Source: an uncultured Faecalibacterium sp.
GTDB taxonomy: Bacteria; Bacillota; Clostridia; Oscillospirales; Ruminococcaceae
Length of the DNA stretch: 64,000 nt
NCBI GenBank assembly: GCA_937907025.1
Contig: CALESJ010000035.1
Location: 5,763-69,762 of the forward strand
Direction: 5' to 3'
Shown here piece after piece: positions 1,545 to 26,450 of this stretch; the stretch's first letter is position 1, and every line of letters begins with the position of its first letter. Both the position numbers and the translations under genes were made by a program. The notes under the pieces are model-generated. The model saw only the letters and a program-made list of their open reading frames with translations, was not told the DNA's origin and searched no databases.

Positions 1545-1689
1545 GAAAAAACTCTCTTTTCTTGATGTCGTTTTGCGGCATGCCGCAGCTTTCTATCATT
1601 ATACGCGCTTGCCGGGACCGGCGCAAGCGTGTTATACTGTTCCCGGCGGCCACGCCGCCCCAATTTCACAAAAAGGCAGGGAAGAGCGG

Positions 1690-2184: not shown

Positions 2185-2205
2185 GCTTTTATCATAAGAC
2201 AAAAC

Positions 2206-2254
2206 AAACCGGCGCGAAGAAAGCGACTTTGCCTTCTCCGCGCCGGTTTTGCTT
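2206..2254. terminator. Bidirectional intrinsic terminator between the convergent CYTH gene and murE
   Basis: CCGGCGCG (2209-2216) pairs with CGCGCCGG (2239-2246). The stem is flanked by an A-run upstream and a T-run downstream. Confidence 0.6.
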
Positions 2255-2265
2255 TTGTGTCGGGT

Positions 2266-3762: not shown

Positions 3763-3769
3763 CGGCTCT

Positions 3770-5599: not shown

Positions 5600-5805
5600 A
5601 TACTTTCCCTTTCCTTGGGGTGCCGGTTGATTTTCGATACCCTATATTATACACACATGCCCCCGAAAAGAAAAGCCTGAACCGCTGAAAAGAATGTAAA
5701 AGTATCACAAGGCCCCGGGGGCGGGCTGATACCTTTGGACGATACAGCGCATACTGTAAGGGAAAAGACCCTGCCGGTGCCGTCCCGGCAGGCCACCGCA
5801 GATGA

Positions 5806-5835
5806 TTGACAACGGCACCGCTTTGGACGTAAAAT
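5806..5835 (+). promoter_or_regulatory. Sigma-70-type promoter for the ATP-grasp/asnB-2 operon
   Basis: TTGACA (5806-5811), an 18-nt spacer, then TAAAAT (5830-5835). It sits about 40 nt upstream of the ATG at 5877. Confidence 0.45.
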
Positions 5836-5876
5836 AATCAGGAATATACCATCTGTATGAACAGAGAGGGTTTTGT

Positions 5877-7112
5877 ATGCTGAAATTTCAACCTGTGCTG
5901 CTGGGCAGCGATGCCAACGTCTACGGCATGGCCCGCAGCTTTTATACCCAATACGGTGTCGTCAGCGACGCCGTCTGCAAGGGGGTCCTGGTGGCCTGCC
6001 GCAACACCCGCCTGGTGCGCATTGCGGTGGTGGAACCGGACCTGGAAAAGGACGAAGTCTTTGTGCGTACCCTGGTGGACTACGCCAAAGCCCATGATTA
6101 CCAGAACTGCCCGCTGCTGCTGGTTTCCTGCGCCGACGGGTACACCATCCTCATGGCCCGCCACCGCCAGGAACTGGAGCCCTATTTCCATTTTGCCTGC
6201 CCGGAACTGCAAACCGTGTTGGATCTGGACATAAAAGACAACTTTTATAAAGCCTGTGCCGCACATGGGCTTTCTTACCCGAAAACGGCCACCTGCACCG
6301 CGCAGAACTACAAAAATGCCGAATTTCCCTTCGATTTCCCGGTGATCATCAAGGCCAGCAATTCCCCGGCCTACTGGAACTGCTCCTTCCCCCACAAAAA
6401 GAAGGTGTTCCTGGCCCATGACCGGGTCGAGTACGACGCCATCACCACGGCCATCTACGGCAGTTCCTACCAGGACGACCTGATTTTGCAGGAGTACATC
6501 CCCGGCGACGACAACTGCATGCGGGTACTCAACGCCTACTGCGGTCTGGACCGCAAGGTCCACCTGATGGCCCTGGGCCGCCCCCTGCTGGAGGAGCAGA
6601 CCCCCGAGGGCATCGGCAACTATGCGGCCATCCTCTCCTCCCCGGAGATCAACGATTCCGCCCTGCTGGAGCGGATGCGCGCCTTCCTGGAAGATGTGGG
6701 CTGGGTGGGCTACGCCAATTTTGATATGAAGTACGACGCCCGCACCGGGGAGTATAAGCTCTTTGAGATGAACCCCCGCCAGGGCCGTTCCAGCTACTTT
6801 GTCACCGCCGCCGGCTACAACCTGGCCCGCTGGCTGGTGGAGGACGTGCTGGAAGGCAAGGATACCGGCTTTACCATCGCCGATACCGAAAGCCTGTGGA
6901 TGATCGCCCCCTACGGCGTTATCCGCAAGTACCTGAAAGACGAAAAACTCCTGGCCACTGCCGCCCGGCTGAAAAAGCAGGGCCGCAGCGCCCACCAGCT
7001 CTACTGCAAGGAGGATCGCAGCCTCAACCGGGGCCTGTGGTACCTGCGCAGCCAGCTGAACTACTACCGCAAGACCGCCCGCTATTACGGCAACAAGGGT
7101 CTGACCGACTGA
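5877..7112 (+). CDS. ATP-grasp carboxylate-amine ligase (COG3919 / D-aspartate-ligase-like family)
   Basis: 411 aa. The N-terminus FQPVLLGSDANVYGMARSFY is typical of the COG3919 ATP-grasp group that includes peptidoglycan D-Asp ligases. The central region has ATP-grasp features. SD GAGAGGG lies upstream. Confidence 0.7.
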   Translation: MLKFQPVLLGSDANVYGMARSFYTQYGVVSDAVCKGVLVACRNTRLVRIAVVEPDLEKDEVFVRTLVDYAKAHDYQNCPLLLVSCADGYTILMARHRQELEPYFHFACPELQTVLDLDIKDNFYKACAAHGLSYPKTATCTAQNYKNAEFPFDFPVIIKASNSPAYWNCSFPHKKKVFLAHDRVEYDAITTAIYGSSYQDDLILQEYIPGDDNCMRVLNAYCGLDRKVHLMALGRPLLEEQTPEGIGNYAAILSSPEINDSALLERMRAFLEDVGWVGYANFDMKYDARTGEYKLFEMNPRQGRSSYFVTAAGYNLARWLVEDVLEGKDTGFTIADTESLWMIAPYGVIRKYLKDEKLLATAARLKKQGRSAHQLYCKEDRSLNRGLWYLRSQLNYYRKTARYYGNKGLTD

Positions 7113-7132
7113 CCCAGAGGAGGATAACATCC

Positions 7133-9019
7133 ATGTGTGGTATCACCGGCTTTGCCGAACGCAAACATGACGCCGAAACCGCCCGGGCTACCGTGAAGGC
7201 CATGGCGGACCTGATCACCTACCGCGGCCCCGACGGGGAAGGGTATTATGTGGACGACCAGGTGGCTCTGGGCCACCGCCGTCTGTCCATCATCGACCTG
7301 GAGGGCGGCCGCCAGCCCATGTACAATGAAGATGAGAGCCTGGTGGTCATCTTCAACGGCGAGATCTACAATTTCCAGACCCTGCGCACCGAACTGGAAG
7401 CCGCGGGCCATACCTTCAAGACCCATTCGGACACCGAAGTCCTGCTCCACGGCTATGAACAGTGGGGCAAGGAACTGCCTGCCAAGCTGCGGGGCATGTT
7501 CACCTTCGTGATCTGGGACCGCAACACCAAAACCATGTTCGGCGCCCGGGACATTTTCGGCATCAAGCCCTTCTACTACTACAATGTGGGCGGGCTGCTG
7601 CTTTTCGGCAGTGAGATCAAGAGTTTCCTGGCCCATCCCGGCTTCAAGAAGCAGCTGAACGAGAAGCGCCTGCCCGAATACCTGAGCATCGAATACATCC
7701 CCAACGAGGAAACCATGTTCGTGGATGTGTTCAAGCTGCCCGGCGCCCACATGTTCACCTGGCACGACGGCAAAATGACCATCGAGCGGTATTACGACAT
7801 CCGCTATCATATCGACGAATCCAAGAGCCTGGAAGACTGGGAAAAGAAGATCACCGACACCTTTGCCGAGAGTGTGGCTGCCCATCAGATCGCCGACGTG
7901 GAGGTGGGCTGTTTCCTGTCCTCCGGTGTGGATTCCAGCTTTGTGGTCAACGAGGTAGCCAAGGGCACCCCCCATGTAAAGAGCTTCTCGGTGGGGTATG
8001 CGGAGGAAAAATACTCCGAGCTGCCCTACGCCCAGGCCTTCAGCAAGGAGATCGGCGTGCCCAGCATCGCCAACAAGGTGGACGCCGACCGGTTCTTTGA
8101 GGCCAACCGGGTCATCCAGTGGTATCTGGACGAACCCATGCCCAACCCGGCGGAGGTGCCGCTGTACTTCCTGGCCCAGAACGCCCGCAAGTACGTCAAG
8201 GTGGTGCTGTCCGGCGAAGGCGCCGACGAGCTGTTCGGCGGGTATCCCATGTACTGCCAGGCCGTCCATTTTGAGGATTACGGCCGCAAGGTGCCCAAGG
8301 CCGTGCGCAAGTTCCTTTCCCATACGGCAGCCAGAATGCCCCACTTCAAGGGTCAGCACTTCCTGGTCCGGGGCGGCCGGGAATCCTGGGAACGGTATAT
8401 GCGCGCCAACTATGTGTTTGAATCCCCGGCGGAGCGGGACCGCTACCTGAAGAAAAACTACGGCAACCCCGCCCCCGAAACCTTCTTCAAACCCTACTTC
8501 GACAAGGTGCAGGGCCTGGATGAGCCCACCCAGCTGCAGTGGGTGGATATGCATACCTGGATGCTGTACGACATCCTGCTCAAGGCAGACCGCATGAGTA
8601 TGGCCAACTCCCTGGAGCTGCGTGTGCCTTTCCTGGACCGGGAGATGCTGGAAGTGGCCCTGAGCATTCCCCGCCGCTACCGCTGCGACAAGGAACACAC
8701 CAAGATCGCCTTGCGCGGCGCTGCTCTCAAGCAGCTGTCTGAGAGCGTGGCCCAGCGCAAGAAGCTGGGCTTCCCGGTGCCGCTGAACGACTGGCTGCGC
8801 CAGGACAAGTACTACGCCATGGTGAAGGAAAAGTTCACCGGCCCGGTGGCGGAGCAGTTCTTCAACGTGCCGGAGATCTGCCGTCTGCTGGACGACCACA
8901 AGGCCGGCCGCGCCAAGAACATGACCAAGATCTGGAGCATTTACTCCTTCATCCTGTGGTATGAGCTGTATTTTGTGAACAGCGAACCGCCGGTAGGGGT
9001 GTATTCCGCAAAAGTTTGA
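7133..9019 (+). CDS. asnB: Asparagine synthase (glutamine-hydrolysing) family amidotransferase, paralog 2
   Basis: In-frame ATG at 7133 (MCGITGF) preceded by AGGAGGA, within track ORF 6896..9019. It aligns by eye with paralog 1 along its whole length, for example RRLSIIDLEGGRQPMYNED and FGSEIKSFLAHPGF. Confidence 0.9.
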   Translation: MCGITGFAERKHDAETARATVKAMADLITYRGPDGEGYYVDDQVALGHRRLSIIDLEGGRQPMYNEDESLVVIFNGEIYNFQTLRTELEAAGHTFKTHSDTEVLLHGYEQWGKELPAKLRGMFTFVIWDRNTKTMFGARDIFGIKPFYYYNVGGLLLFGSEIKSFLAHPGFKKQLNEKRLPEYLSIEYIPNEETMFVDVFKLPGAHMFTWHDGKMTIERYYDIRYHIDESKSLEDWEKKITDTFAESVAAHQIADVEVGCFLSSGVDSSFVVNEVAKGTPHVKSFSVGYAEEKYSELPYAQAFSKEIGVPSIANKVDADRFFEANRVIQWYLDEPMPNPAEVPLYFLAQNARKYVKVVLSGEGADELFGGYPMYCQAVHFEDYGRKVPKAVRKFLSHTAARMPHFKGQHFLVRGGRESWERYMRANYVFESPAERDRYLKKNYGNPAPETFFKPYFDKVQGLDEPTQLQWVDMHTWMLYDILLKADRMSMANSLELRVPFLDREMLEVALSIPRRYRCDKEHTKIALRGAALKQLSESVAQRKKLGFPVPLNDWLRQDKYYAMVKEKFTGPVAEQFFNVPEICRLLDDHKAGRAKNMTKIWSIYSFILWYELYFVNSEPPVGVYSAKV

Positions 9020-9027
9020 TGATTTTT
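9012..9027. repeat. Left copy of a 16-bp perfect direct repeat AAGTTTGATGATTTTT (candidate attL)
   Basis: Identical 16-mer at 16646-16661. This copy overlaps the asnB-2 stop codon (TGA 9017-9019). Confidence 0.8.
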
Positions 9028-9112
9028 GCTACCGTCAAGGGTTTAAATTGTAATTTGTGCGATTAACCAAAAAAGTCCATGCTGTTTTGTTGCTTTTTGA
9101 CGGGGGCGGTCT

Positions 9113-9174
9113 GAGCCCCTTACGGGTCTCCGACCGGCTGCGGGAGCCCCTGGGGGTCTCCCTCCGCGGCGGCT
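9113..9174. repeat. Two tandem ~31-bp units, each containing an imperfect hairpin GAGCCCC-N4-GGGTCTC
   Basis: GAGCCCCTTACGGGTCTCC at 9113-9131 and GAGCCCCTGGGGGTCTCC at 9144-9161. Confidence 0.5.
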
Positions 9175-9321
9175 GTGCCGCCATGGGCCAATTTTACAGT
9201 TAACAGCAGCACAAAAAGCCCGTCACCACGGTGGCGGCAGGCAAAAGGTCGCTGCGCGGCATTAAAACGCGCCTAACAGAATTCAATGATGCGCAATTCG
9301 TCCGCCTTCGCGGACTTACGA

Positions 9322-10419
9322 TTAATGACTCTTTTTGAAAAATTGGAAGTCCGGGACTCCGAAAAATTGAGCCACTCGGTCAGGGTGTTGCAGTGGCAAG
9401 TTCGGCAATTCCTGGGCGAACATCTGCGCCGCCGATTTTCCGCCGAACATCTCACGAGGGTATGCGTTCAGCCAGTTCTGGGCTGCTGTTGCTTCTTTTT
9501 GCGTTGCGTTTCGCAGACTTTGTCCTTTCGGGAACATCCGGCGCAGCATCTTATTTCCATGCTCATTGCTGCCCCGTTCCCCCGGGCTTTGCGGATGGGC
9601 GTAAAACACCGTCACACCCGTTTTATCCATACCAGCCTGGTCTGCAAATTCGGCTCCGTTATCTAATGTCAGGGTGCGGAACAGCACATTATAGTCGTGC
9701 TTACCGAAGTACCGTCTTAACCGCTGCAATGCACTCACTGTATTGACAGCGGTTTTTTCTTTTACCTTTATCACAATGGACAGTCGGTATTTCCGGTCAG
9801 TCAGGGTCAGGCAGCTTTCGCCGATGCCGTGCTTTCCAATGATGCTATCGCCTTCCCAGTGACCAAACTGCTGCCGAGTCGATATAGCTTTGTCCCGACG
9901 CTCAATCGAGCGGTGATCTGGCCGGCTCGTCCGCATACGAACCACTCTGCCGTTTCGCTTTTTGGGATGACCTACCGGCAAATGCTCGTACGTCACACTT
10001 TCAAACAGGCCGCCTTGAATATACCGGTAACAAGTTGTCTTTGAAATACACATTTCAAACTTGCCAGATTGAGCAACCTGCTTGATTGCCGCATAGGGGC
10101 TATGCTTTGCCAGAATCGCCCTTTCAAGCGCTTGGAGATAGGCACGATTCTTCCCGATTTTGAGGTCTGGACCATGGGCTGTCTTTTGATAATCTGCATC
10201 CCTTTGAGCCACATCTGCCGAATAGGTACGAAAATATACCCAAGTCCTATAATTCAATTGCGTGACCTGGCCCCGTTTGAGCTCCTTACTAATGGTCTGT
10301 TGAGATACACCAATTTCCCGTGCAATAGCCGTTTGGGTTAATCCTTGCCGGTGCAGACATTCGATTCTTGCACGTTCGTCCGCCGTAAGGTGCTTACCCT
10401 TTCTTCGATTCTCATACAA
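9322..10419 (-). CDS. IS30-family DDE transposase
   Basis: The maximal ORF is 9322..10440. HTH is LTQTAIAREIGVSQQTISKELKR. The DDE core reads HWEGDSI / TLDNGAEF / NEHGNKMLRR. AGGAG plus 8 nt favours a TTG start at 10419. A hairpin with a 17-bp stem (10439-10484) lies just upstream. Confidence 0.85.
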   Translation of the reverse strand: MYENRRKGKHLTADERARIECLHRQGLTQTAIAREIGVSQQTISKELKRGQVTQLNYRTWVYFRTYSADVAQRDADYQKTAHGPDLKIGKNRAYLQALERAILAKHSPYAAIKQVAQSGKFEMCISKTTCYRYIQGGLFESVTYEHLPVGHPKKRNGRVVRMRTSRPDHRSIERRDKAISTRQQFGHWEGDSIIGKHGIGESCLTLTDRKYRLSIVIKVKEKTAVNTVSALQRLRRYFGKHDYNVLFRTLTLDNGAEFADQAGMDKTGVTVFYAHPQSPGERGSNEHGNKMLRRMFPKGQSLRNATQKEATAAQNWLNAYPREMFGGKSAAQMFAQELPNLPLQHPDRVAQFFGVPDFQFFKKSH

Positions 10420-10532
10420 CACAATCACTCCTATAAACAATAAGCCGCCATCCTCTTACCGTAGCGGGAGGATAGCGGCTTATTTTTATGTTCCGGGCCA
10501 CGGCAGGTTGCAAAGCACACCCGCCCAGCGCC

Positions 10533-10613
10533 GTCAAGGGGCGCAATTTTTCACAACTTTCACCAGTGTGCGCACTGGTGAAACCCGTGAACAATCGCGC
10601 TTTTTCCCTTGAC
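10533..10613. repeat. 81-bp imperfect palindrome with a perfect 11-bp core stem
   Basis: Outer arms are GTCAAGGG (10533-10540) and CCCTTGAC (10606-10613). The core is TTTCACCAGTG-TGCG-CACTGGTGAAA (10558-10583). The arms in between match at about 12 of 17 positions. Confidence 0.7.
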
Positions 10614-10723
10614 TGCACTGTTCTGGCGTGCTCGGCTGCAATCAGAGGGTGAAGCGCCTGAGCGCTTCGCCCTCAATTCGATTTTGGGAGAACGGAAGAT
10701 ACAAATAACAGGAAGCTAACACG

Positions 10724-10942
10724 ATGCAAAAATACAAAATCACCGTTTACTATGATATGCACACACCTTGGTCGGGAAAAACATCTTACAACCTTGAAAA
10801 AGAAAAAATCATCCAGTCAGACACTTTTCCCTCCAATGAAATGGCATACGAAGAAGCCCAACTCATGTTCAAGGAACTGCAACTTATGTTTATCATGCAC
10901 GATATTTATGACTGCGGCTTCAAAGTCGAACAAATCGACTAA
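10724..10942 (+). CDS. Hypothetical 72-aa protein on the strand opposite the phage module
   Basis: AGGAAG SD 9 nt upstream. AT-rich codons. No recognisable motif. Convergent with the Zot-like gene. Confidence 0.45.
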   Translation: MQKYKITVYYDMHTPWSGKTSYNLEKEKIIQSDTFPSNEMAYEEAQLMFKELQLMFIMHDIYDCGFKVEQID

Positions 10943-10957
10943 AAGCAGTACACATAG

Positions 10958-11008
10958 CGGCGTGCGCGTGGCGGCGGGGCAGGAGCCCCGCGCCCCCACG
11001 CGCAGCGC
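10958..11008. terminator. GC-rich nested hairpin between convergent genes
   Basis: GCGCGTGG (10964-10971) pairs with CCACGCGC (10996-11003). An inner stem CGGGGC-AGGA-GCCCCG is enclosed. The U-runs are weak. Confidence 0.4.
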
Positions 11009-11011
11009 CGC

Positions 11012-11923
11012 TTACCGTTTTGCAGCAGAGCCAACACGGCGTTTGCCTTTGCGGCTCAAATTTGTGGCGGCATCCAGGCCGAGCGGCCCGGCCGGATTCT
11101 GATTCTGAATGATCTCGGCTTCAGTGAGCAAGTCGCCGTCCTCAACCTTCTTCCGCAGGTTGTCCACAACCGCCAGAGTATCATAAGCATTATAATCCTT
11201 GTCCAGGACAAACCACAAGCCGGCGGCCAGCGGCTGTATCATTTCGGCGTTGGTGGCGTTCTCCAGTTCCCAAGCATCATAGGACTGCCAGAGCTGGAAC
11301 CGCCACACTTTTTTGCATTGAATGACCGTATGCGTCACATCACGCATCAGCTTGTCCACATGCTGAAACCGCTGGGCGGAGCCGTAGAAACTGATATGAT
11401 AGTGACGGCAACACAGCAAGGTGTTGAGGAAATAGGCGTTAAAGTTATCCTTGAAACTGCGGCTGTTCATCTGGACGCTCAATTCATCCATAGCCACGAT
11501 GGTGACTGTTTGAGTATCGTTCTGATCATCCAACACCGGGGTCAATTTAGTCATGTTGACCACCTGGGAAAGAGATTCCAGCTTGATATACGGAATAGCC
11601 AAGTCCACATTGGAGAGGATAACCACCTTTTGAGTTACAAACTTTTGGCGGCGGCTGCACCAGACCGGGCGGTCATTGTACCGCTCATACAGCCCCACAA
11701 CCTTATGCACCAGGGAAAGCGTCTTACCAGAGCCAAAGTAGCCGCAGTAGATGTCCAGGGCACCCACCGGGCAGGTGTTCCAGCCCTTGTGTTTTATGTA
11801 GGCGACTGCATCCCGGACTCCATGCACGGAACACTTAACAGGGTGAAACACAATGCACCGGGCGATTCTGGACACGGCCAGGACCACCAGGAAAACCACA
11901 GCAAAGAAAATCATGTATCCCAT
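11012..11923 (-). CDS. Zot/pI-like P-loop morphogenesis ATPase
   Basis: 303 aa with an N-terminal TM helix, Walker A GYFGSGKT and Walker B TIVAMDE. GGAGGTGG SD. It is the last gene of the minus-strand module. Confidence 0.65.
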   Translation of the reverse strand: MGYMIFFAVVFLVVLAVSRIARCIVFHPVKCSVHGVRDAVAYIKHKGWNTCPVGALDIYCGYFGSGKTLSLVHKVVGLYERYNDRPVWCSRRQKFVTQKVVILSNVDLAIPYIKLESLSQVVNMTKLTPVLDDQNDTQTVTIVAMDELSVQMNSRSFKDNFNAYFLNTLLCCRHYHISFYGSAQRFQHVDKLMRDVTHTVIQCKKVWRFQLWQSYDAWELENATNAEMIQPLAAGLWFVLDKDYNAYDTLAVVDNLRKKVEDGDLLTEAEIIQNQNPAGPLGLDAATNLSRKGKRRVGSAAKR

Positions 11924-11924
11924 G

Positions 11925-12098
11925 TTACCACCTCCGGTTAAAGCTGTTCAGCCAGCTTTTGAGCATGCCGAACACGAACAGGAACAAACCGATTGCCAGC
12001 AGCACAGAGAACAGCCAGGGAATGAGTTCGCAAAGGTTTTGCGGAGCCTGCGAGGACAGGCCGAAGAATGTACAGAGATCAGCAAACAGACCGGACAT
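11925..12098 (-). CDS. Small membrane protein (57 aa), minor-coat/assembly candidate
   Basis: The ATG overlaps the upstream stop (TAATG) and is preceded by AAGGGGTGG. The sequence MSGLFADLC..LFSVLLAIGLFLFVFGML contains one TM helix. The track ORF 11925..12116 begins 18 nt earlier. Confidence 0.55.
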   Translation of the reverse strand: MSGLFADLCTFFGLSSQAPQNLCELIPWLFSVLLAIGLFLFVFGMLKSWLNSFNRRW

Positions 12099-12538
12099 TA
12101 AAACCACCCCTTCCATGCGAATTTAAAGAACGCGACCGCAACCACACCGACAACAAAAAGCAGCACCAGCACTTCTACTACACTGTATTCAGCAAACGGC
12201 TTTTCAAAAGCGCTTTGCGCCGTTTCGGGCGTGGAGGGCTGGGTATTCTGCTCAACTTTTGAAAGTGTAGATTCAATGCGGGTAAGCTGTCCGGAGTAGT
12301 CCGGAACTTCTGCAGCCGGAGCATCTTCCGCCGGTTCCTCGGCCAACTGCTCCAGAATAGCGTCAAGCGTTTCCTGAATACCAACCAACTGTTGGTCCTG
12401 CACTTGCACGGTCCCTTCCGCCGGTGTCGGTGCAGGCGTCGGGTCCACTTCTTCGGCATGGGCCCGATACTGATACACCAGCAACACCAAGAGAGATAGC
12501 ATCACCATAGATGCCACTTGAAAGTAACTTTTATACAT
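12098..12538 (-). CDS. 146-aa protein with a signal-anchor and a C-terminal TM (phage structural/assembly candidate)
   Basis: TGAGGTGA SD 8 nt upstream. It has N-terminal and C-terminal hydrophobic helices flanking an acidic, Pro-rich middle. Confidence 0.6.
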   Translation of the reverse strand: MYKSYFQVASMVMLSLLVLLVYQYRAHAEEVDPTPAPTPAEGTVQVQDQQLVGIQETLDAILEQLAEEPAEDAPAAEVPDYSGQLTRIESTLSKVEQNTQPSTPETAQSAFEKPFAEYSVVEVLVLLFVVGVVAVAFFKFAWKGWF

Positions 12539-12551
12539 TTATTCCATCACC

Positions 12552-12749
12552 TCACTCACCATTAAACAAACGGACCAGAAAGCCAAAAATCAAGAAACCT
12601 ACCATACTATAAAAAAACACGTCACGGAACGAAAAGGAAAATCCATAGATATTCATGGGAATGTTAATACCTTCCCATACAGTGGTCAAAAACTGCCCGA
12701 AAACTTCCACAACATCACCCCCGAATAAACTTGATAACCGCAAGAACAA
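12552..12749 (-). CDS. 65-aa hydrophobic protein (pVI-like candidate)
   Basis: The TTG start overlaps the 3' end of the upstream gene, so the start is uncertain. The C-terminal TM is FYSMVGFLIFGFLV. Confidence 0.4.
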   Translation of the reverse strand: MFLRLSSLFGGDVVEVFGQFLTTVWEGINIPMNIYGFSFSFRDVFFYSMVGFLIFGFLVRLFNGE

Positions 12750-14625
12750 TCATCAAGACAACACCGGCACCAAGAACATTAAGAACATCAGCGGGCAAGT
12801 ACCCAAAAGAAGCCTTCAAGAACTCACTAAAACCACTTGCCATGGTAAGCAGCGATTCAAAAAGGGAAAACAGACCAGAAATGACCGCCGCAAACAAGTC
12901 CCCAAGTCCATTCAATAACGAAAGTATCATATCAATCAGACCATTCAAATCGCTATCGCCATCACCGTCACCAGTCTCAGGAGTGGACGGCGGTAAAGTG
13001 GTTTCGGGATTGTCCGAAGGCGAAGGAGTAGGATCACCAGGATCAGGGGAAGGCGAAGGCGTTGACGGAGATTCCTCATCATTGCCATAATCAGATAAAT
13101 CGGTATCTTTGAGAGATTTCCACTCACCATCAAGATAGATTGCCGCATCAACAGATTGCCATCCATTGTTCTGATATTGCTGCACATCTTTAACGACATT
13201 ATCTTCCAGATAGACATATGTATAACCATTTATCGGATAAGTAGGACGCACACCGCCAACACGAATATCTGATACAGAGATATTAGACTTTACTGCAATT
13301 TGATTTTCAACTCCCTCCTCTGGCAACACCAACACACTGTTTGTATCAAACGGCTGAGAAGAAGGCGTGTAATCGGAAGTATACAGGATTTTATTAGAAA
13401 TTCGAATCTCATCAATAGCAAATGTAGTCCAGCCACAATACATCCACGGTCCTGTCCCTTTATTGTTATACGCCCGGACACCAGTATCGTTAGAGATCGA
13501 ATAACCAGAGCTGGTATAAATATTTGCGAAATTAAAAGAACTATCAATCGATTGTTTGGAACCGTTAACGAATACTACACACTTATTTGATACAGAATCA
13601 TAAGTAATAGCAACGCTGGTCCAAGTATTAAGAGGTAAATCAAATTTTCCAGTGTTAGAAGTATCGTAACAGTTATGAAATATACCGTTATACAAAAATG
13701 TGCCTAATACTTCGCCATTATCAAGAGCCGAACGTTTAGGATCTATACGGGCACTTAAATACTTAATCCGAAATTCAATTGTGTATTTAGGCATGGCACC
13801 AACAAAAGGAATTTCAAGTTCTGCAGTTGATGCAATATCATTAAAATACAATCCACCATCAAAAAAACCATCAGAAAGCGTAAGATAAGAATGACTTTCA
13901 ATATCGGGTGCTCCGTTCGCACTACTATCAGAATAATTGCCATCTAAATGATAAAGGGCCATCGTAGTACCATCATCTTCAACGACTTCTTTATAATTAA
14001 CCGCATCATATATAAAATACTGGCCCCAAACATCTTCCACAGTCAAATTATAAGAATTACGCCCATCCGGCAACTCATAATAATAAATAGAATTTTCATA
14101 GGCGGGCACATCGGGCGTACTTGTCGCAGCGGGATAAGAAACAATTACATATGTATAATAATTTGTAATATAATAGTTTTGATTGTTTACAGTATAGGTG
14201 TAGTAATTATATGTCTGATTATAGTTATAAGTGTTGTAAGTATAACTATTCATGACGTAATTGTTTGTAGAAGAAGAATAACTTGTATAATTCAATGTAT
14301 TGTTTTGCTGATTCACAATGGAGTAATAACTGGTATAGCCAGAATTATACAGATTATCAGCGCCACCATCAGAAGGAGCCGTATAATACTTTTTACCCGT
14401 TTCCAAGCGGCCCGCACCACCACCACGATATGAGCCACCGCCAGCCTGAAAAAGAAGGCAACCACACTCAGGACAATACATGTGCTCAGTCAATACGCCC
14501 TGAAACTGAACAGTACCACAATTCGGGCAATGAGTGTTATACGAAGTAGCAAAAGCAGAAGCAGGCAAGAGAAGAGAAACAAGCAAAAGCACAGCCACAA
14601 AAACGCAACAACATTTTTTACACAT
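12715..14625 (-). CDS. pIII-like adsorption/minor coat protein (signal peptide, N/Y-rich region, LamG-like domain, P/S linker, C-terminal anchor)
   Basis: ATG at 14625 with AAGAGGTG SD. The track ORF begins at 14664. The signal peptide ends AFA. Two CxxC pairs are present. The N/Y/T/S-rich tract is encoded at 14134-14355. The LamG-type ending reads FAIDEIRISNKILY. A PSTPSPSPDPGDPTPSP linker precedes a hydrophobic C-terminus. Confidence 0.7.
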   Translation of the reverse strand: MCKKCCCVFVAVLLLVSLLLPASAFATSYNTHCPNCGTVQFQGVLTEHMYCPECGCLLFQAGGGSYRGGGAGRLETGKKYYTAPSDGGADNLYNSGYTSYYSIVNQQNNTLNYTSYSSSTNNYVMNSYTYNTYNYNQTYNYYTYTVNNQNYYITNYYTYVIVSYPAATSTPDVPAYENSIYYYELPDGRNSYNLTVEDVWGQYFIYDAVNYKEVVEDDGTTMALYHLDGNYSDSSANGAPDIESHSYLTLSDGFFDGGLYFNDIASTAELEIPFVGAMPKYTIEFRIKYLSARIDPKRSALDNGEVLGTFLYNGIFHNCYDTSNTGKFDLPLNTWTSVAITYDSVSNKCVVFVNGSKQSIDSSFNFANIYTSSGYSISNDTGVRAYNNKGTGPWMYCGWTTFAIDEIRISNKILYTSDYTPSSQPFDTNSVLVLPEEGVENQIAVKSNISVSDIRVGGVRPTYPINGYTYVYLEDNVVKDVQQYQNNGWQSVDAAIYLDGEWKSLKDTDLSDYGNDEESPSTPSPSPDPGDPTPSPSDNPETTLPPSTPETGDGDGDSDLNGLIDMILSLLNGLGDLFAAVISGLFSLFESLLTMASGFSEFLKASFGYLPADVLNVLGAGVVLMIVLAVIKFIRG

Positions 14626-14688
14626 AGGACACCTCTTGCGATCTTTTATTTTTGATGTTATCATTGAAAAAAAGGAGGGGTTGCAAGT

Positions 14689-14928
14689 ATGGTTTTCATT
14701 TTCAGTGAAAGCGGACTGTCCTACATTGAACGCCTTATGTATAAGGGTGCAATAGGTATTTTTTACAGTGATACTCTGAGCGGAATACTGGCATATATCC
14801 TCTTTGCGTTTTTCGCTATAATGGCATTCATTGGAATCCTTTGTACGTTAAAAGCCATAATTATAGGAATTGCGAAGAAAATAAACGCAAAAAGAAGCCC
14901 ATATAAGTACTACAACCGCAGTAAATAA
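14689..14928 (+). CDS. 79-aa membrane protein encoded antisense to the phage operon
   Basis: Strong SD AAGGAGG 8 nt upstream. One or two TM helices (ILAYILFAFFAIMAFIGILCTL) and a basic C-terminus. Confidence 0.55.
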   Translation: MVFIFSESGLSYIERLMYKGAIGIFYSDTLSGILAYILFAFFAIMAFIGILCTLKAIIIGIAKKINAKRSPYKYYNRSK

Positions 14929-14958
14929 AAAAGCCGGACGGCCTTGCGACCGCCCGGC
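14927..14958 (-). terminator. Intrinsic terminator directly after the coat-like gene
   Basis: On the minus strand, GCCGGGCGG-TCGCAAGG-CCGTCCGGC forms a 9-bp stem with one G-U pair, followed by UUUUUU. Confidence 0.75.
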
Positions 14959-14967
14959 ATGGGCTGA

Positions 14968-15129
14968 TTAGCCACGCGCAACGCGCTTCAGGCGGCCAAA
15001 GATGGAAATGCCGACAGGCACCAGGCTGGCGGCCAGACAGAACAGCAGGATGGGCTGGCTAGTGATTTCAGTAACACAAGTACCAGCCAGGCTGAACACA
15101 TCGGACATGGCAGTAATGACAGTTTCCAT
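14968..15129 (-). CDS. Major coat protein-like ORF (53 aa)
   Basis: Below the track cutoff. AAAGGAG SD 9 nt upstream. The sequence is METVITAMSDVFSLAGTCVTEITSQPILLFCLAASLVPVGISIFGRLKRVARG. It has an acidic/polar N-terminus, a hydrophobic helix and a basic C-terminus, the Pf3/pVIII architecture. Confidence 0.65.
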   Translation of the reverse strand: METVITAMSDVFSLAGTCVTEITSQPILLFCLAASLVPVGISIFGRLKRVARG

Positions 15130-15170
15130 AGAGCTTTTACTCCTTTCTAGGTTTGTTGTATATGCACCTC

Positions 15171-15407
15171 TTACGAGGGTACAGCGGGATTAACAGGGGC
15201 ATGAGAAACCGTACCGCGAGCGGTACAGTGATGCGTTTCGGGGTCGAAGTGAAGTTCGATTGTTGCGTTGCGAGCCATAGGGCCATATGCAGCATCGAGG
15301 TCCCCGAGGGTCAGGGCGATGATGGTTGCCAGATAAATGGAGCCGTCGAACACCAGAAACGCACCAAAATTCTGCGCGTCCATATAGCTCATAGACAGAT
15401 TGAACAT
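15171..15407 (-). CDS. 78-aa hypothetical protein (position of an ssDNA-binding/gV-like gene)
   Basis: ATG at 15407 with AAAGGAG SD. The track ORF begins at GTG 15416. It lies immediately downstream of Rep, whose stop is at 15413-15415. Confidence 0.5.
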   Translation of the reverse strand: MFNLSMSYMDAQNFGAFLVFDGSIYLATIIALTLGDLDAAYGPMARNATIELHFDPETHHCTARGTVSHAPVNPAVPS

Positions 15408-15412
15408 GATTG

Positions 15413-16117
15413 TCACTCCTTTGAAAGTGTAGAATCAAAAAGGTCATAATCGCCTGTGACCGGCAAAAAGCCGCCTTTGCAGTTCCGGCCACGGGTGCCA
15501 TCGTTCATCGGGGTTCGTGCGCGGGAACGTTCGAGGAAGATGTCCCGCCACATGGCGTAGTTCTTTTTGAAAGTTGCCCAACAACCTTCCTCATAAGCCC
15601 AGCGGGCCATTTCATTGAAGGTGTCAAAGGCAGGCATATCCAACAGAATTTGAACCTGGTCGTCCTCCATAGCGGACATTCCCGCATGTTCTGAGGGTTC
15701 GTCAAATTCGTGGGCCCCGACAATGCTTTTGGGGTATTGGTACTTGTCCGGGTCCAGCATATGCCACAGATAGACATATGCTTTATACAGGTTGTTCACC
15801 TTGCGGATGGTGTTAACTGGTACACCCAATTCCTTGGCGATGCCCGTGAAGTATCGGGCGTTCGGGAACTGACACACAAAATGCACATGAGGTTTCTTGA
15901 GGTCGCCGGGCTTAAAGTCGGGCGGTTCGCCGTCTTTCTTAAGCCGCTTGTCATAATCGGCTTGAGTGTACACGTCTTGATCATGTAGTGCCCACGCGCA
16001 AGGCAGGTGCGTTTGTGCGTAGTCTATAATTGATTGCTGGCTCTCGGGGTAGAGTACAAACATACATTGCCTTGCGCGGATTTTTGGGGCTGGCCGTTCT
16101 TCGCCCAACTTTACCAC
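15413..16117 (-). CDS. HUH rolling-circle replication initiator, Rep_2 (pMV158 RepB) family
   Basis: The motifs align by eye with pMV158 RepB: FVLYPES, AWALHDQD, KKPHVHFV (the HUH motif) and YVYLWH (the catalytic Tyr region). GTG start with a weak SD. Confidence 0.8.
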   Translation of the reverse strand: MVKLGEERPAPKIRARQCMFVLYPESQQSIIDYAQTHLPCAWALHDQDVYTQADYDKRLKKDGEPPDFKPGDLKKPHVHFVCQFPNARYFTGIAKELGVPVNTIRKVNNLYKAYVYLWHMLDPDKYQYPKSIVGAHEFDEPSEHAGMSAMEDDQVQILLDMPAFDTFNEMARWAYEEGCWATFKKNYAMWRDIFLERSRARTPMNDGTRGRNCKGGFLPVTGDYDLFDSTLSKE

Positions 16118-16141
16118 CTACTTTGTTAAATTTTGTTTTTT

Positions 16142-16187
16142 GACACTGACACTGACACTCCAAAGGACGTAGCGCCTTTGGAGTGTC
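16142..16187 (-). promoter_or_regulatory. Candidate double-strand origin: 3 x GACACT iterons plus a hairpin with a 13-bp stem
   Basis: GACACT at 16142, 16148 and 16154. The stem is GACACTCCAAAGG (16154-16166) with CCTTTGGAGTGTC (16175-16187). The 8-nt loop reads CGCTACGT on the coding strand. Confidence 0.55.
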
Positions 16188-16202
16188 AGCCTTGCAGCTG
16201 AC

Positions 16203-16229
16203 AAAAGGCCGGGCTGCGCCCGGCCTTTT
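16203..16229. terminator. Bidirectional intrinsic terminator
   Basis: AAAAGGCCGGGC-TGC-GCCCGGCCTTTT. Confidence 0.7.
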
Positions 16230-16264
16230 CTATGGTGGCGGTTGGGCGTTTTCCGCTGGTGGCA

Positions 16265-16543
16265 TCAGTCCATTACCTGATAGTCGACACAACGGCCATT
16301 CGGGTCGAAATCGAATTCGACAGTATGACCGACGAGATTGGCAGCAGAGCCGCCCACATCAGCAATGAGCTCGGCGGCTTCTTTCGCCTTCATCTTAATG
16401 GTGGTGACTGCCTGCCCGGTGACGCTGCGGGAAGAACACACGGCATGGATGACGAAGTTGTCATATGCGATTTTTTCACCAGGCTTGTCACTCGGGGTAA
16501 AACTGCCCTGACGGCGTTCAACGCCAACAATTCCACATTTCAT
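16265..16543 (-). CDS. 92-aa hypothetical protein at the right end of the island
   Basis: AAAGGA SD. No confident motif. The segment RRQGSFTPSDKPGEKIAYDNFVIHAV is loosely reminiscent of OB-fold gV-type proteins, which is speculative. Confidence 0.5.
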   Translation of the reverse strand: MKCGIVGVERRQGSFTPSDKPGEKIAYDNFVIHAVCSSRSVTGQAVTTIKMKAKEAAELIADVGGSAANLVGHTVEFDFDPNGRCVDYQVMD

Positions 16544-16645
16544 GACTTTTTCCTTTCTTTCTCGGCCCCGGCTATCTTGCCGATTTTTGGCCTTTTGTTG
16601 TTTGTAACCTCGGTTTTTGGCTACAACGTTAATATAAAACTTTTG

Positions 16646-16661
16646 AAGTTTGATGATTTTT
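16646..16661. repeat. Right copy of the 16-bp direct repeat AAGTTTGATGATTTTT (candidate attR)
   Basis: Identical to 9012-9027. It is followed immediately by the tRNA operon promoter. Confidence 0.8.
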
Positions 16662-16672
16662 ACAGCAGGGGC

Positions 16673-16701
16673 TTGACTTTTCAGGCTGCGTATGGTATAT
16701 T
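16673..16701 (+). promoter_or_regulatory. Promoter of the tRNA-Arg/tRNA-His operon
   Basis: TTGACT, a 17-nt spacer, then TATATT with an upstream TGG (extended -10). Confidence 0.6.
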
Positions 16702-16748
16702 AACAAACGCAGCTTGTTCCCGATATATAAGGGGGTCAAGAACCATGC

Positions 16749-16822
<74 letters not shown>

Positions 16823-16829
16823 TATGTAT

Positions 16830-16907
16830 GGTGCCTATGGCGCAGTTGGTTAGCGCGCCAGATTGTGGCTCTGGAGGCCGAGGGTTCGAATCCCTCTAGG
16901 CACCCCA
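16830..16907 (+). tRNA. tRNA-His (anticodon GTG), with G-1 and an encoded CCA
   Basis: An extra 5' G is present. Acceptor GTGCCTA/TAGGCAC, anticodon loop TTGTGGC, T-loop TTCGAAT, then C and CCA. Confidence 0.85.
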
Positions 16908-16982
16908 CCAAAGACCGCACAGTCCTTAAAAAGCTGCGCGGTCTTTTTTCTTAGCTTTTTGGCGGTCCAGGCCGCCTTTTGC

Positions 16983-17057
16983 TGGGCCGTAGCCAAGTGG
17001 TAAGGCAGCGGACTTTGACTCCGCCATTCGTGAGTTCGAACCTCGCCGGCCCAACCA
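16983..17057 (+). tRNA. tRNA-Gln (anticodon TTG), CCA encoded
   Basis: Acceptor TGGGCCG/CGGCCCA, anticodon stem GCGGA/TCCGC, loop CTTTGAC, T-loop TTCGAAC. Confidence 0.85.
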
Positions 17058-17058
17058 A

Positions 17059-17095
17059 ATACGCCCCGTCGAATCCCGGCGGGGCGTATTTTTGT
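17059..17095 (+). terminator. Intrinsic terminator after tRNA-Gln
   Basis: ATACGCCCCG pairs with CGGGGCGTAT, followed by TTTTTG. Confidence 0.7.
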
Positions 17096-17181
17096 TTATG
17101 TGGACGTTTACCGGCCCCGGTACCGGGGCATACTTCTCTTGCAGGACGGCTCCGAGCCGCCCGAAAGGGAGGTGAATCCGA

Positions 17182-17337
17182 ATGGAAAACTGCGGCGTTT
17201 TTTGTGACGTGGACGCCTGCGCCCACAACATCAACTGCCAGAAATGTGATCTGAGCCAGATCAAGATCACCCACCACACCGATAACGCATCCGGCGTGGA
17301 TACCCCGCACTTCTGCCAGAACTACGAACAGAAGTGA
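17182..17337 (+). CDS. DUF1540-type small Cys/His-rich protein (51 aa)
   Basis: Below the track cutoff. AAGGGAGGTGA SD. The sequence is MENCGVFCDVDACAHNINCQKCDLSQIKITHHTDNASGVDTPHFCQNYEQK. Confidence 0.7.
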   Translation: MENCGVFCDVDACAHNINCQKCDLSQIKITHHTDNASGVDTPHFCQNYEQK

Positions 17338-17355
17338 CACTGTCCCGGACAGTGC

Positions 17356-17405
17356 AAAACGGCCCCTTTGCGAAAGAAGCCTTCGCAGAGGGGCCGTTTT
17401 TTTGG
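17356..17405. terminator. Bidirectional intrinsic terminator
   Basis: AAAACGGCCCCTTTGCGAA pairs with TTCGCAGAGGGGCCGTTTTTTT. Confidence 0.7.
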
Positions 17406-17409
17406 TTTA

Positions 17410-18708
17410 TCAGCCGGTGTGCACGAACTTGGGATAAATGCGCTCCATGCGCTCATTGTCAAAGTGTTCGTCCAGATACACGGCAATCTGGTTGTCGGCA
17501 GGTTTGCCCTCAATGCGGGCGGTGTAGCGGGACAGGGCCGCCGAACTCACGGCCATGTTGACGCACATGAACACCACCAGGCACCAAGTCAGCACGGTGC
17601 CGAACCGGCGGGGCAGCTTTTCGATACCGGCGGACAGCGGGGGATAGAAGACCTTGAACCAGGCTACCGCCGCAAAGCCCCAGAAGAAGCAGTACAGCAG
17701 GTTGATACGGCCGCCCAGGTTGAAGGGAATCTTGCTGTAATCCCAGAACACGGCGCCGAAAACGATCTCGGTAAAGACGCTGCACAGATACTCGTACACG
17801 CCGCCCAGCAGGGTACCGGCCACAAACAGCCAGCTGGCGCTCTTGTCCTTGTACCGGTAGAGCAGCAGGGTCACCAGGGCGATGGCCAGGCCCCACACGA
17901 TGGAGAAGGGCCCCCACACCAGGCTGGACCGGCTCATCCATTCCCCGGCGGTGATGCGGCAGAAGATGGTTTCGGCCACATCGCCCAGGAATGCGCCGAT
18001 GACGAACAGCAAAAACAGCTTGTAGAAGCTGCATCCTTCGGCAAAGACGGTGCTCTTTTCCCGCTTGGGGCGCTCAAAGTTGGCCTGGGGATAGGCCTTG
18101 GTCATGCGGCGCTCGGTACGGCCCAGCACCCACATGCCCATGTTCAGGGTCAGCGCGGCCAGACGGTTGTGGACTTCCCGGGCCTGGGCAAACCGGTGGC
18201 GGATGCCCGCCAGGGTCAGCACCGTGCCGATGCTGTCCAGCGCCAGCAGGGCCAGCAGCACCCAGATCAGAATCTGCCCGGCCAGAGCAGGCAGCAGGGC
18301 AAAGAGGTTCAGCAGCAGGGGCGCCACCCATTTGACGGCCACCACGCCCAGAACGCCCCAGAACACAGACGCCGACAGGCAGATGTACCCGTCCAGATTG
18401 AATTTGCGGTTGGAGTAGTCCCACCAGCGGGTGTCACTGAACCGTTCCAGGATGTGCCCGCCGATCCATTCCACCGCCGTGGCAATGACGGCACTGAACA
18501 GGAACAGGAAGAACCAGTCGGTCATGGCCAGCTCCCGCAGGCCCACGGTGATGATGCTGCCTGCCACGCCGTAGATCAGGCACAGGGGACCGCCCAGCAC
18601 GCCGCGGTCCTGATAGCGGTGCTGCCGGATGGCGGTGAACAGGACTTCGGCCAGCCAGCCGATGAAGGAATAACAGAAGAACAGCCAGACTAAACTAAAA
18701 AATGTCAT
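17410..18708 (-). CDS. Duplicated DUF1113 (putative ABC-transporter type IV, CmpB-like) membrane protein
   Basis: 432 aa. Two repeats each carry an FxxYSFIGW-like N-terminal motif and a WDYS..N..G motif (WWDYSNRKFNLDG and FWDYSKIPFNLGG). Confidence 0.75.
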   Translation of the reverse strand: MTFFSLVWLFFCYSFIGWLAEVLFTAIRQHRYQDRGVLGGPLCLIYGVAGSIITVGLRELAMTDWFFLFLFSAVIATAVEWIGGHILERFSDTRWWDYSNRKFNLDGYICLSASVFWGVLGVVAVKWVAPLLLNLFALLPALAGQILIWVLLALLALDSIGTVLTLAGIRHRFAQAREVHNRLAALTLNMGMWVLGRTERRMTKAYPQANFERPKREKSTVFAEGCSFYKLFLLFVIGAFLGDVAETIFCRITAGEWMSRSSLVWGPFSIVWGLAIALVTLLLYRYKDKSASWLFVAGTLLGGVYEYLCSVFTEIVFGAVFWDYSKIPFNLGGRINLLYCFFWGFAAVAWFKVFYPPLSAGIEKLPRRFGTVLTWCLVVFMCVNMAVSSAALSRYTARIEGKPADNQIAVYLDEHFDNERMERIYPKFVHTG

Positions 18709-25836: not shown

Positions 25837-25841
25837 ACATC

Positions 25842-26384: not shown

Positions 26385-26450
26385 AAGGCATATATCCGCT
26401 ATCATATAGATGCCATCTATACCGTTAGATAGTCGGAAAGGAGCAACGCA

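Follow-up and report, generated by a model that had tools for sequence, protein, structure and literature searches.

A probable inovirus-like prophage of gut Clostridia carrying an IS30-family transposase and inserted upstream of a host promoter

Introduction

In Gram-positive gut anaerobes, filamentous prophages mostly appear in annotations as hypothetical proteins, and their integration is largely unstudied. The reference survey of inoviruses left it open whether the transposases in inovirus genomes are domesticated or selfish (Roux et al., PMC6813254), and could not say whether they are phage functions. A 64,000-nucleotide (nt) stretch of contig CALESJ010000035.1 from an uncultured Faecalibacterium sp., referred to in its entirety as the window, raises this question at a single locus: between an asparagine-synthase gene and a tRNA cluster lies an island that a first, sequence-only reading had interpreted as an integrated inovirus-like phage, and at one end of this island there is a gene for an IS30-family transposase. 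What is the island, how was it inserted, and does the transposase belong to it? In the answer that we consider probable, the island is a complete and recently acquired inovirus-like prophage that was inserted at a promoter-proximal position by its own IS30-type transposase. The evidence is sequence-based and consists of gene content with its homologies, the empty site, termini conserved among relatives, duplications that differ from site to site, insertion close to promoters and the joined ends of relatives. Together, the locus and its relatives give a concrete and testable answer to the question left by the survey, and define the ends, the duplication, the target rule and a candidate regulatory junction promoter.

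Island boundaries and empty sites

The 16-mer AAGTTTGATGATTTTT occurs in two exact copies in the window (Table 1), and no further copy was found there when up to two mismatches were allowed; two matches were obtained in 0 of 100 shuffles. The sequence-only reading had stated that this repeat bounds the island, a claim that it would have dropped for a common genomic repeat (the 16-mer is not one in the window), and that G+C drops between the copies, which it does, from 0.58-0.65 in the flanks to 0.36-0.53 in the island, with a minimum of 0.36-0.40 at 13000-15000 in the gene for the adsorption protein. The left copy overlaps the end of an asparagine-synthase gene, asnB (TIGR01536, 503 bits), and the right copy ends 11 bp before a host promoter, TTGACT(16673)-17-TATATT, which is followed by the genes for tRNA-Arg(tct), tRNA-His and tRNA-Gln. 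The insertion measures 7,634 bp with one repeat copy included, and the element itself occupies window 9028-16645/6.

An empty site had also been predicted. Matching a 30-mer that spans the predicted empty junction against GTDB genomes led to L007, a contig of an Oscillospiraceae metagenome-assembled genome (MAG) that is 97% identical to window 1863-9027 and then 100% identical to 16646-16802, with the 16-mer present once. The same order, in which asnB...AAGTTTGATGATTTTT is followed directly by ACAGCAGGGGCTTGACT, was found in L032 and L034, whose flanks are 99.7-99.97% identical to those of the window; L032 in particular matches the flanks at 99.97% identity, over 9.0 kb on one side and 6.7 kb on the other, and contains a single 16-mer and no phage. 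L033, in turn, is 100% identical to window 1-18019. Among the 24 contigs read that encode an identical AsnB protein, 20 were occupied and 4 empty, and all copies of the exact window phage that were read lie at the same site; an exact-match scan of JGI metagenome contigs for the empty-site 30-mer gave 0 matches. The island is a discrete, polymorphic and recently inserted element. Its description as complete with clean ends was sound, the empty sites being precise and the element intact, except that the IS30-family transposase gene in its left 1.4 kb had been overlooked.

Conserved termini and variable duplications

The two tips of the element are conserved among relatives, whereas the host DNA that they meet is not. 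Next to the transposase gene the sequence ...CCCTTGAC(A/G)GTAGC is kept and abuts unrelated host DNA in each relative; the terminus ...CCTTGAC(A/G)GTAGC, for example, adjoins different host DNA in L002, L012-L018, L020, L023 and L035-L044. At the other end, next to the replication initiator gene (rep), homologous termini of relatives read CTTAAAGTTTTATAAT and CCTAGAGTTTTATAAT. Phages that encode identical ATPases were found at different loci, and in each the same termini are met by a 15-16-bp repeat particular to the locus. The P0001 phage, the ATPase of which is 95% identical to that of the window phage, was found in the interval between rpsF and galT, beside a DUF975 gene, beside ackA and at other places, and there are three sites for P0015, two for P0025 and at least six for P0044, one on a plasmid-like contig.

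Wherever a contig includes both ends, a perfect repeat specific to the site flanks the conserved termini, examples being CCGTTTATTCGACGG(T), AAAAAATCGCATTTT(T), AATTAAATTTTGCCG, CATACTTTGCAGGGC, GATTTATTCAAGATT, CGGCCGCCTTTATTC, AAAAAATCGCGTCAG and AACAGGTGATTTTAT. When scored with the duplication length fixed at 15 bp, both copies agree exactly at 13 of 13 reconstructed sites, with L043 fitting 16 bp instead, and the length is 15 bp wherever it is unambiguous. The repeat of the window sub-lineage reads as 16 bp (3/3 cases); its termini, when placed in register with those of the other lineages, suggest a duplication of 15 bp in the window (9013-9027) plus one base shared by chance or by target preference. 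Because the sister phages L005 and L006 from IMG/VR have common termini and different repeats, of 24 bp and 15 bp, a fixed attachment (att) core is excluded on this comparison, and because each site has its own duplication abutting conserved phage ends, we read the 16-bp direct repeat as a target-site duplication and not as an att core. The adjacency of repeat and tRNA promoter, to which the sequence-only reading had drawn attention, is an expression of the element's targeting rule.

An automatic search of the island ends for long terminal inverted repeats returned a weak match only, and the short in-register repeats became apparent only through comparison with relatives: in the P0015/P0025 lineage a perfect 10-bp TCAATGCAAA stands at positions 16-25 of each end, and L004 has a terminal inverted repeat of ~19 bp. 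The octamer CCCTTGAC occurs seven times in the window, three of them inside the phage (9034-9041, 10533-10540, 10606-10613), once at the terminus and twice as an inverted pair upstream of the transposase gene; these copies may be binding sites of the transposase or of a regulator.

The transposase as a phage module

The protein encoded at the left end matches the NCBIfam IS30-family equivalog NF033563 at 213 bits (cut-off 80), phrog_4646 at 5.5e-97 and the Pfam helix-turn-helix (HTH) domain HTH_38 at 1.4e-13, plus rve. A search of the IMG/VR viral collection through the ATPase gave six relatives, all six of which have an IS30-type gene beside the ATPase gene (identity 36-54% for the transposase and 58-84% for the ATPase). 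Its position and strand are the same in further metagenome relatives whose right end is captured, and in L009 a SprT-like gene, without a transposase gene, precedes the contig end. Across relatives, the transposase diverges in step with the ATPase. A search for inverted repeats bracketing the transposase gene alone gave only a weak 15-nt inverted match, nothing convincing. From these observations, we infer that the enzyme acting on the phage is very probably its own IS30-family transposase. The HTH resembles sigma-70 region 4 (Pfam 1.3e-3; NCBIfam sigma70-ECF 5.5e-6), a possible explanation for recognition of -35 sequences that we offer as a lead only; an HTH of this sort is expected to be generic to IS30 transposases.

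Insertion upstream of promoters

Read outward from the rep-proximal side, the host flank shows first the 15-bp duplication and, 11 nt further on, a -35-like hexamer, which is separated from a -10 hexamer by 17 nt that frequently include a TG extension. At the nine sites on which this rule was derived, the -35 hexamers are TTGACT, TTGACT, TTGACA, TTTACT, TTGACA, TGGAAA, TTGCAT, TTGTTA and TTGCAA, and the -10 hexamers are TATATT, TAAAAT, TATAAT, TAAAAT, TACAAT, TATAAT, TATAAT, TATACT and TATAAT. Seven further independent sites of P0044 phages served as the test set, of which six pass and the seventh is cut off by the contig end. A match of at least 9/12 for -35 plus -10 at the fixed offset is found at 15 of 16 sites, against 0.07% of 317,454 control positions, and the orientation relative to the promoter is always the same. 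A 17th site, read by eye, agrees with the 11-bp offset, and the L045 lineage (63% ATPase identity) follows the same rule at another tRNA-cluster promoter, if its duplication is taken as 15 of 17 repeated bases.

The targeted promoters belong to a range of host genes. Those found 3′ of them include rpsF, pyrH, purA, a racemase gene, a plasmid rep gene and, in the window, tRNAs, and gene tables show the adjacent host gene oriented for drive by the target promoter in nearly all cases. The duplication spans ~-47 to -61 from the transcription start, that is, the UP-element region; it is 63% A/T on average in a genome of ~60% G+C, an A-run lies close beyond it, and a C immediately precedes the -35 hexamer.

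The plasmid gene belongs to L035 (ERZ28636347 scaffold_713), where a sister phage lies upstream of the promoter of a Rep3-type plasmid replication gene, by a ParA-like gene. As this contig is plasmid-like, plasmids are within the phage's reach as targets, and would offer it a second way to spread.

Joined ends and a candidate junction promoter

Two contigs show the two phage ends joined to each other. L011 (ATPase 76% identical to that of the window phage) carries the ATPase and transposase genes, then ...TTGACAGTAGC-TC-CTTAAAGTTTTATAAT..., a 95-aa open reading frame (ORF) and Rep, with no host DNA. L044 (ERZ18732548 NODE_4721) carries host flank, a first phage copy, ...TTGACAGTAGC-GG-CCTAGAGTTTTATAAT... 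and the start of a second copy, with a one-base difference. The spacer is 2 bp in both. Across either junction, TTGACA stands 5 nt from one tip and TATAAT at positions 11-16 of the other, so that the joined ends read TTGACA-17-TATAAT. For the L005/L006 lineage the corresponding sequence is predicted to be TTGACA, a 16-17-nt spacer and TACAAT, and for the L045 lineage TTGACA-17-CATAAT. The joined ends of L011 and L044 are those of relatives with 74-76% ATPase identity; for the window phage itself the joined end is predicted to read GGTAGC-NN-(T)CAAAAGTTTTATATT, with TTGACG-17-TATATT as its junction promoter. Transcription from such a promoter would enter the 92-aa ORF, followed by rep and the virion genes; integration would split the promoter. 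The conserved phage end CCCTTGACA also resembles the target C-TTGACA.

L003 was considered as a further joined-end junction and rejected, as it holds two different elements of the same family with a response-regulator gene fragment between them. Polylysogeny and tandem arrays appear to occur (L003, L044).

Relationship to inoviruses

The minus strand of the island carries, in order, Rep, a 78/81-aa ORF, a 53-aa ORF, a terminator, a 636/649-aa protein, small membrane ORFs and a 303-aa P-loop ATPase. Our ORF calls agree with the inovirus layout given by the sequence-only reading, the inventory of which lacked the transposase gene, the 92-aa ORF and the two ORFs on the opposite strand (Table 1). 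Similarity of the Rep to Rep_2 and of the ATPase to Zot had been named as checks. The Rep matches Pfam PF01719, which we take to be the family formerly named Rep_2, at 8.4e-11 and 42.5 bits (cut-off 24.6), and in tblastn finds initiators of replication in Inovirus sp. and in bajarodino viruses, with values down to 2e-14 and with 42 inovirus records and with initiators of circular inovirus genomes from faecal viromes among the matches.

For the ATPase, the family speaks more clearly than the single sequence, which reaches 1.2e-4 against phrog_1675 (protein I of M13) and, in tblastn, 4e-4 against annotated Zot genes of bajarodino viruses. The family comprises >2,000 metagenomic proteins, with no precomputed Pfam domain among 120 listed. 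Among 32 diverse members, 31 match phrog_1675 and two weakly match Pfam Zot. We aligned the family profile by hhalign with a Zot/pI reference profile of seven proteins (five bajarodino Zot, M13 pI and phage B5 Orf8), all above Pfam's Zot threshold, and obtained 99.2% probability with E 3e-19 over 182 columns; on this profile comparison the ATPase is a divergent homologue of pI/Zot. Searching PDB sequences with a profile yielded spurious matches only, and Foldseek of the ATPase model against the PDB gave nothing below E 0.07, with generic P-loop folds only.

Hydropathy of the 649-aa, 65-aa, 146-aa and 63-aa ORFs shows signal peptide or anchor and membrane features, and the gene order is kept in relatives. 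In agreement with the claim that a secretin is absent and the host Gram-positive, none was found in the island with Pfam, PHROG and NCBIfam profiles, nor was any family beyond those named here, and the host lineage is Bacillota, class Clostridia, the closest named genome being an Oscillospiraceae MAG. In all, we read window 9028-16645/6 as a complete and intact inovirus-like prophage of a human-gut Oscillospiraceae bacterium, which would make filamentous virions.

Gene map

Coordinates are collected in Table 1. By position, the 78/81-aa and 92-aa ORFs are candidates for single-stranded DNA (ssDNA)-binding proteins, as the place of the former between rep and the coat gene suggests; neither has a family match in Pfam, PHROG or NCBIfam profiles. 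HUH and Tyr motifs can be made out in the Rep sequence, its motifs also including YLWH...Y, and the repeats upstream of rep are a candidate double-strand origin or nick site. The 53-aa protein has its hydrophobic segment at residues 27-45 and is 69-79% identical in L002-L004; no family match was found for it, and its assignment as coat protein is feature-based. The 146-aa protein is a candidate minor virion or assembly protein.

The pIII-like adsorption protein is built of a low-complexity N/Y/T region, a central domain and a P/S/T/D linker, and its residues 195-523 are 32% identical to the counterpart in L004. In relatives its size ranges from 465 to 821 aa, and the G+C of its gene is 0.36-0.40 against ~0.52 in the rest of the phage; this size range and low G+C suggest that the host-recognition module is frequently exchanged.

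Position and size (62-94 aa) of the 79-aa opposite-strand ORF are kept in many relatives; a role in superinfection exclusion or in regulation is conceivable for it. The accessory slot between the ATPase and transposase genes (window 10440-11012) holds an SprT-like metalloprotease gene and 3-4 small ORFs in the sister phages L012-L015 and L045-L049, and sister phages with a filled slot reach 9.3-9.4 kb.

Table 1. Features of the island and of its borders, in window positions
Feature	Position	Strand	Evidence or remarks
Left copy of the duplicated target	9012..9027		perfect 16-bp repeat; overlaps asnB stop codon 9017-9019 (TGA)
Transposase-proximal phage terminus, ...ACAATTTAAACCCTTGACGGTAGC, tip at 9028	9028..9060	-	-35-like TTGACG (9033-9038) 5 nt from tip; subterminal repeat ~9042-9053
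IS30-family DDE transposase, 372-aa ORF (called as 366 aa)	9322..10440	-	N-terminal HTH_38 and rve core
Intergenic control region	10436..10680		hairpins 10436-10487 and 10645-10674; inverted CCCTTGAC pair 10533-10540 (-) / 10606-10613 (+)
72-aa ORF in accessory slot between ATPase and transposase genes	10724..10942	+	ORF call
pI/Zot-like morphogenesis ATPase, 303 aa	11012..11923	-	N-terminal transmembrane helix, Walker A GSGKT, Walker B MDEL
Small membrane protein, 63-aa ORF (called as 57 aa)	11925..12116	-	coupled to ATPase start; conserved in L001, L003-L006
146-aa protein	12098..12538	-	N-terminal signal-like segment, C-terminal anchor
65-aa membrane ORF	12552..12749	-	hydropathy; weak homologue in L004
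pIII-like adsorption protein, 649-aa ORF (636 aa from called start)	12715..14664	-	signal peptide, C-terminal anchor
Conserved 79-aa membrane ORF between coat and adsorption genes	14689..14928	+	ORF call, hydropathy
Strong intrinsic terminator 3′ of coat gene	14933..14958	-	11-bp stem, 9 G-C pairs, T run
53-aa major-coat-like protein	14968..15129	-	acidic N-terminal part, one transmembrane segment, basic C-terminus RLKRVARG
78/81-aa ORF between rep and coat gene	15171..15416	-	ORF call
Rolling-circle Rep, PF01719 family	15413..16117	-	motifs FVLYPES, HVH (HUH motif), YLWHMLDPDKYQY
Candidate double-strand origin upstream of rep	16140..16189		CTGACA x3, then perfect 15-bp inverted repeat 16152-16166 / 16175-16189
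Conserved 92-aa ORF, first gene after phage 5′ end	16265..16543	-	ORF call, present in relatives
Rep-proximal phage terminus, (T)CAAAAGTTTTATATTAACGTTGTAGCC	16600..16646	-	-10-like TATATT at 16631-16636
Right copy of the duplicated target	16646..16661		repeat match and empty-site comparison
Host promoter TTGACT-17-TATATT with TG extension	16673..16701	+	tRNA-Arg/His/Gln cluster; target landmark 11 bp from duplication

Neighbouring regions of the window

Upstream of the insertion, window 1-9019 holds a cluster of two asparagine-synthase paralogues (~78% identity over ~470-bp stretches), a 411-aa ATP-grasp-like gene and a Mur-ligase gene, which may be a cell-wall amidation cluster. A second island of lower G+C (0.48-0.53), at 22400-27952, carries a MobA/VirD2-like relaxase (23235-24512) together with a tyrosine integrase (26451-27725), has tRNA-Leu(caa) (27867-27952) at its end and looks like an integrative mobilizable element. 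L032 and L034 diverge from the window at 23385, where they have a serine recombinase and a 2489-aa methylase/helicase instead, and since this region is replaced in them it is a variable hot spot.

Alternative explanations

A perfect direct repeat that bounds the island, overlaps the 3′ end of a gene and adjoins a tRNA cluster would also be expected of a classical site-specific prophage, in which the 16-mer is the attL/attR core for an integrase or for host XerCD, as in many inoviruses, and the finding of every occupied copy of the exact phage at one site agrees with this. Yet the sister phages with identical ATPases, one of them 95% identical to the window's, sit at many loci with differing repeats and no common core, the joined ends of relatives hold a 2-bp spacer without a copy of the flanking repeat, and Pfam, PHROG and NCBIfam profiles find no tyrosine or serine recombinase in the island. 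The att-core reading of the 16-mer was rejected on the different flanking repeats and the lack of a recombinase in the island, and we give it next to no credence. That the locus combines two unrelated elements, an ordinary IS30-family insertion sequence (IS) having come to lie beside or inside an inovirus prophage with no role in its integration, is highly improbable in our estimate. IS30 elements are common, and selfish and domesticated transposases are indistinguishable by sequence alone (Roux et al., PMC6813254); an independent insertion is nonetheless hard to reconcile with a gene that keeps its position and strand in all six IMG/VR relatives and in further ones, down to 36% transposase identity, and that has around it only the weak 15-nt inverted match and no short duplication. 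The transposase-side terminus directly abuts host DNA, the end that partners it is 7.6 kb distant, on the far side of the 92-aa ORF, and the duplications flank the whole unit.

The nature of the vehicle is a separate matter. An integrated rolling-circle plasmid, or another non-viral element with a P-loop ATPase and membrane proteins that forms no filamentous virion, is an unlikely but more serious candidate, given that PF01719 Reps are typical of small Gram-positive plasmids, that the ATPase family weakly matches FtsK/A32-like packaging ATPases (Pox_A32 in 19/32 members), that one relative (L035) is on a plasmid-like contig and that the phage is known here from its sequence alone. Against it stand the profile-profile match to Zot/pI, which is specific and strong, the succession of Rep, small ORF, coat-like protein, terminator, large secreted and anchored protein, membrane proteins and ATPase, which is the inovirus layout, the circular inovirus genomes from viromes that are the nearest annotated relatives of both Rep and ATPase, and the presence of six relatives in the IMG/VR viral collection.

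Several observations weigh against the reading that we prefer, a complete inovirus-like prophage inserted by its own transposase. The ATPase as a single sequence falls under Pfam's Zot threshold, its AlphaFold2 model is poor (pLDDT, the predicted local distance difference test, 65) with no significant structural match, and no repressor or ssDNA-binding protein can be assigned in the phage. The terminal inverted repeats of the window phage are weak (~8/12 bases in register, at positions 15-26 from each tip), the length of the duplication in the window sub-lineage is ambiguous between 15 and 16 bp, and IS30 proper makes duplications of 2 bp (PMC9333248), not 15 bp. L044 shows copies in tandem and not a proven circle, and the contig of L011 is linear; IMG/VR scans for the window phage terminus and joined ends, and a JGI metagenome scan for the terminus, gave 0 matches. 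The insertion sites come from metagenome contigs chosen via four ATPase clusters, for which lineage effects are possible.

Proposed integration cycle

We propose the following cycle for the prophage and its transposase. In a double-stranded circle, copied out from the prophage, the two phage ends would be abutted with a 2-bp spacer and would assemble a consensus promoter, TTGAC(A/G)-17-TATA(A/T)T, that, in the manner of Pjunc in IS30 minicircles, is directed towards the 92-aa ORF, rep and the virion genes, and that would be active in this form. The IS30-family DDE transposase encoded at the far end would act as the phage integrase: it would cut at the tips and insert the whole genome via a 15(-16)-bp staggered cut, the two positions of which are 11 and 26 bp upstream of the -35 hexamer in a sigma-A-type promoter of the host, with a single orientation. 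The 16-bp direct repeat would therefore be the target-site duplication left by this cut. The host promoter and the neighbouring genes would be left intact, as with the asnB stop codon and the tRNA promoter kept here, and integration would split the junction promoter. Replication would depend on a module of the 92-aa ORF, the PF01719 Rep and the iteron/hairpin origin, and structure and assembly on a putative ssDNA-binding protein, the 53-aa coat, the pIII-like protein, the small membrane proteins and the pI/Zot-like ATPase.

More broadly, we lean, if only slightly, towards a widespread clade of gut-Clostridia inoviruses in which an IS30-family transposase has turned integrase and the genome is a copy-out-paste-in transposon that seeks out the UP-element region, 11 bp upstream of sigma-A promoters, in convergence with TnGBS, with the promoter of the abutted ends as an episome/prophage switch. 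If this is true, the switch would be built in, being on in the circle and split in the prophage. The rule itself (conserved ends, 15-bp duplication, 11 bp to the -35 hexamer) permits exact delineation of such prophages in genomes and metagenomes.

Comparison with known systems

The phage resembles monoderm-host inoviruses (Roux et al., PMC6813254) and Propionibacterium phage B5 (Paulinoviridae) in its small genome, mostly on one strand, and shares with them a rolling-circle Rep, a tiny coat protein, a pIII-like protein, a pI/Zot-like ATPase and the lack of a secretin. B5 Orf8 and the window ATPase are joined by the one Zot/pI profile match; B5, unlike the window phage, has a Rep_1-type Rep and no transposase. 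In contrast to the situation left open by Roux et al., here the ends of the transposase unit are the ends of the phage.

[quoted passage not shown] The phage, taken with its relatives, has in common with this family the transposase, the abutted ends with a 2-bp spacer, a Pjunc-like junction promoter and a tandem dimer junction (L044), and the likeness of its end CCCTTGACA to the target C-TTGACA recalls IS30's targeting of its own ends. The long duplication has a counterpart in the IS30-type IS1630 (16-26 bp, PMC3317919; phage 15-16 bp). Unlike IS30, however, with its 2-3-bp duplication and size of 1-1.8 kb, the phage has a duplication of 15-16 bp and a length of 7.6 kb; its cargo is a whole phage genome of 7.6-9.4 kb with replication and morphogenesis genes, its inverted repeats appear short and subterminal instead of ~20-30 bp and terminal, and its predicted junction promoter faces the phage genes, of which that for the transposase comes last.

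Insertion upstream of promoters has been described as an unusual property of Mutator-like transposases, namely of TnGBS and ISLre2/ISKra4, whose Mutator-like DDE transposases insert 15-17 bp from the -35 (PMC3942029). The phage shares with them the promoter-upstream insertion, its nearest junction lying 11 bp upstream against 15-17 bp for TnGBS, a circular intermediate with a short spacer (putative for the phage, from the joined ends of relatives) and the intergenic location that keeps genes intact. It differs from TnGBS in that its transposase is of the IS30 family and not Mutator-like (p-MULT), its vehicle is viral and not conjugative, and its duplication is longer; the likeness in targeting would thus be convergent. 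A virus-borne IS30-family example would, if true, show that promoter targeting evolved more than once and would add a second system in which to ask how a transposase reads a promoter. We found no literature on promoter targeting by IS30-family transposases or on such targeting by a phage, nor, beyond a mention of Plectroviridae, on inoviruses that transpose by a DDE enzyme, in a library that is incomplete.

Plectroviridae, the Spiroplasma SpV1-type phages with IS3 or IS30 transposases (PMC13595969), are likewise filamentous phages of wall-less or monoderm hosts with an IS30-family DDE transposase. Reportedly they lack a gene devoted to replication and are believed to multiply by transposition (PMC13595969), whereas the window phage, compared here with their description, keeps a rolling-circle Rep and a candidate origin. 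Relative to the literature searched, what is new in the window phage and its relatives is the combination of three known things: inoviruses of monoderm hosts, IS30-type circle-junction transposition and TnGBS-like promoter targeting.

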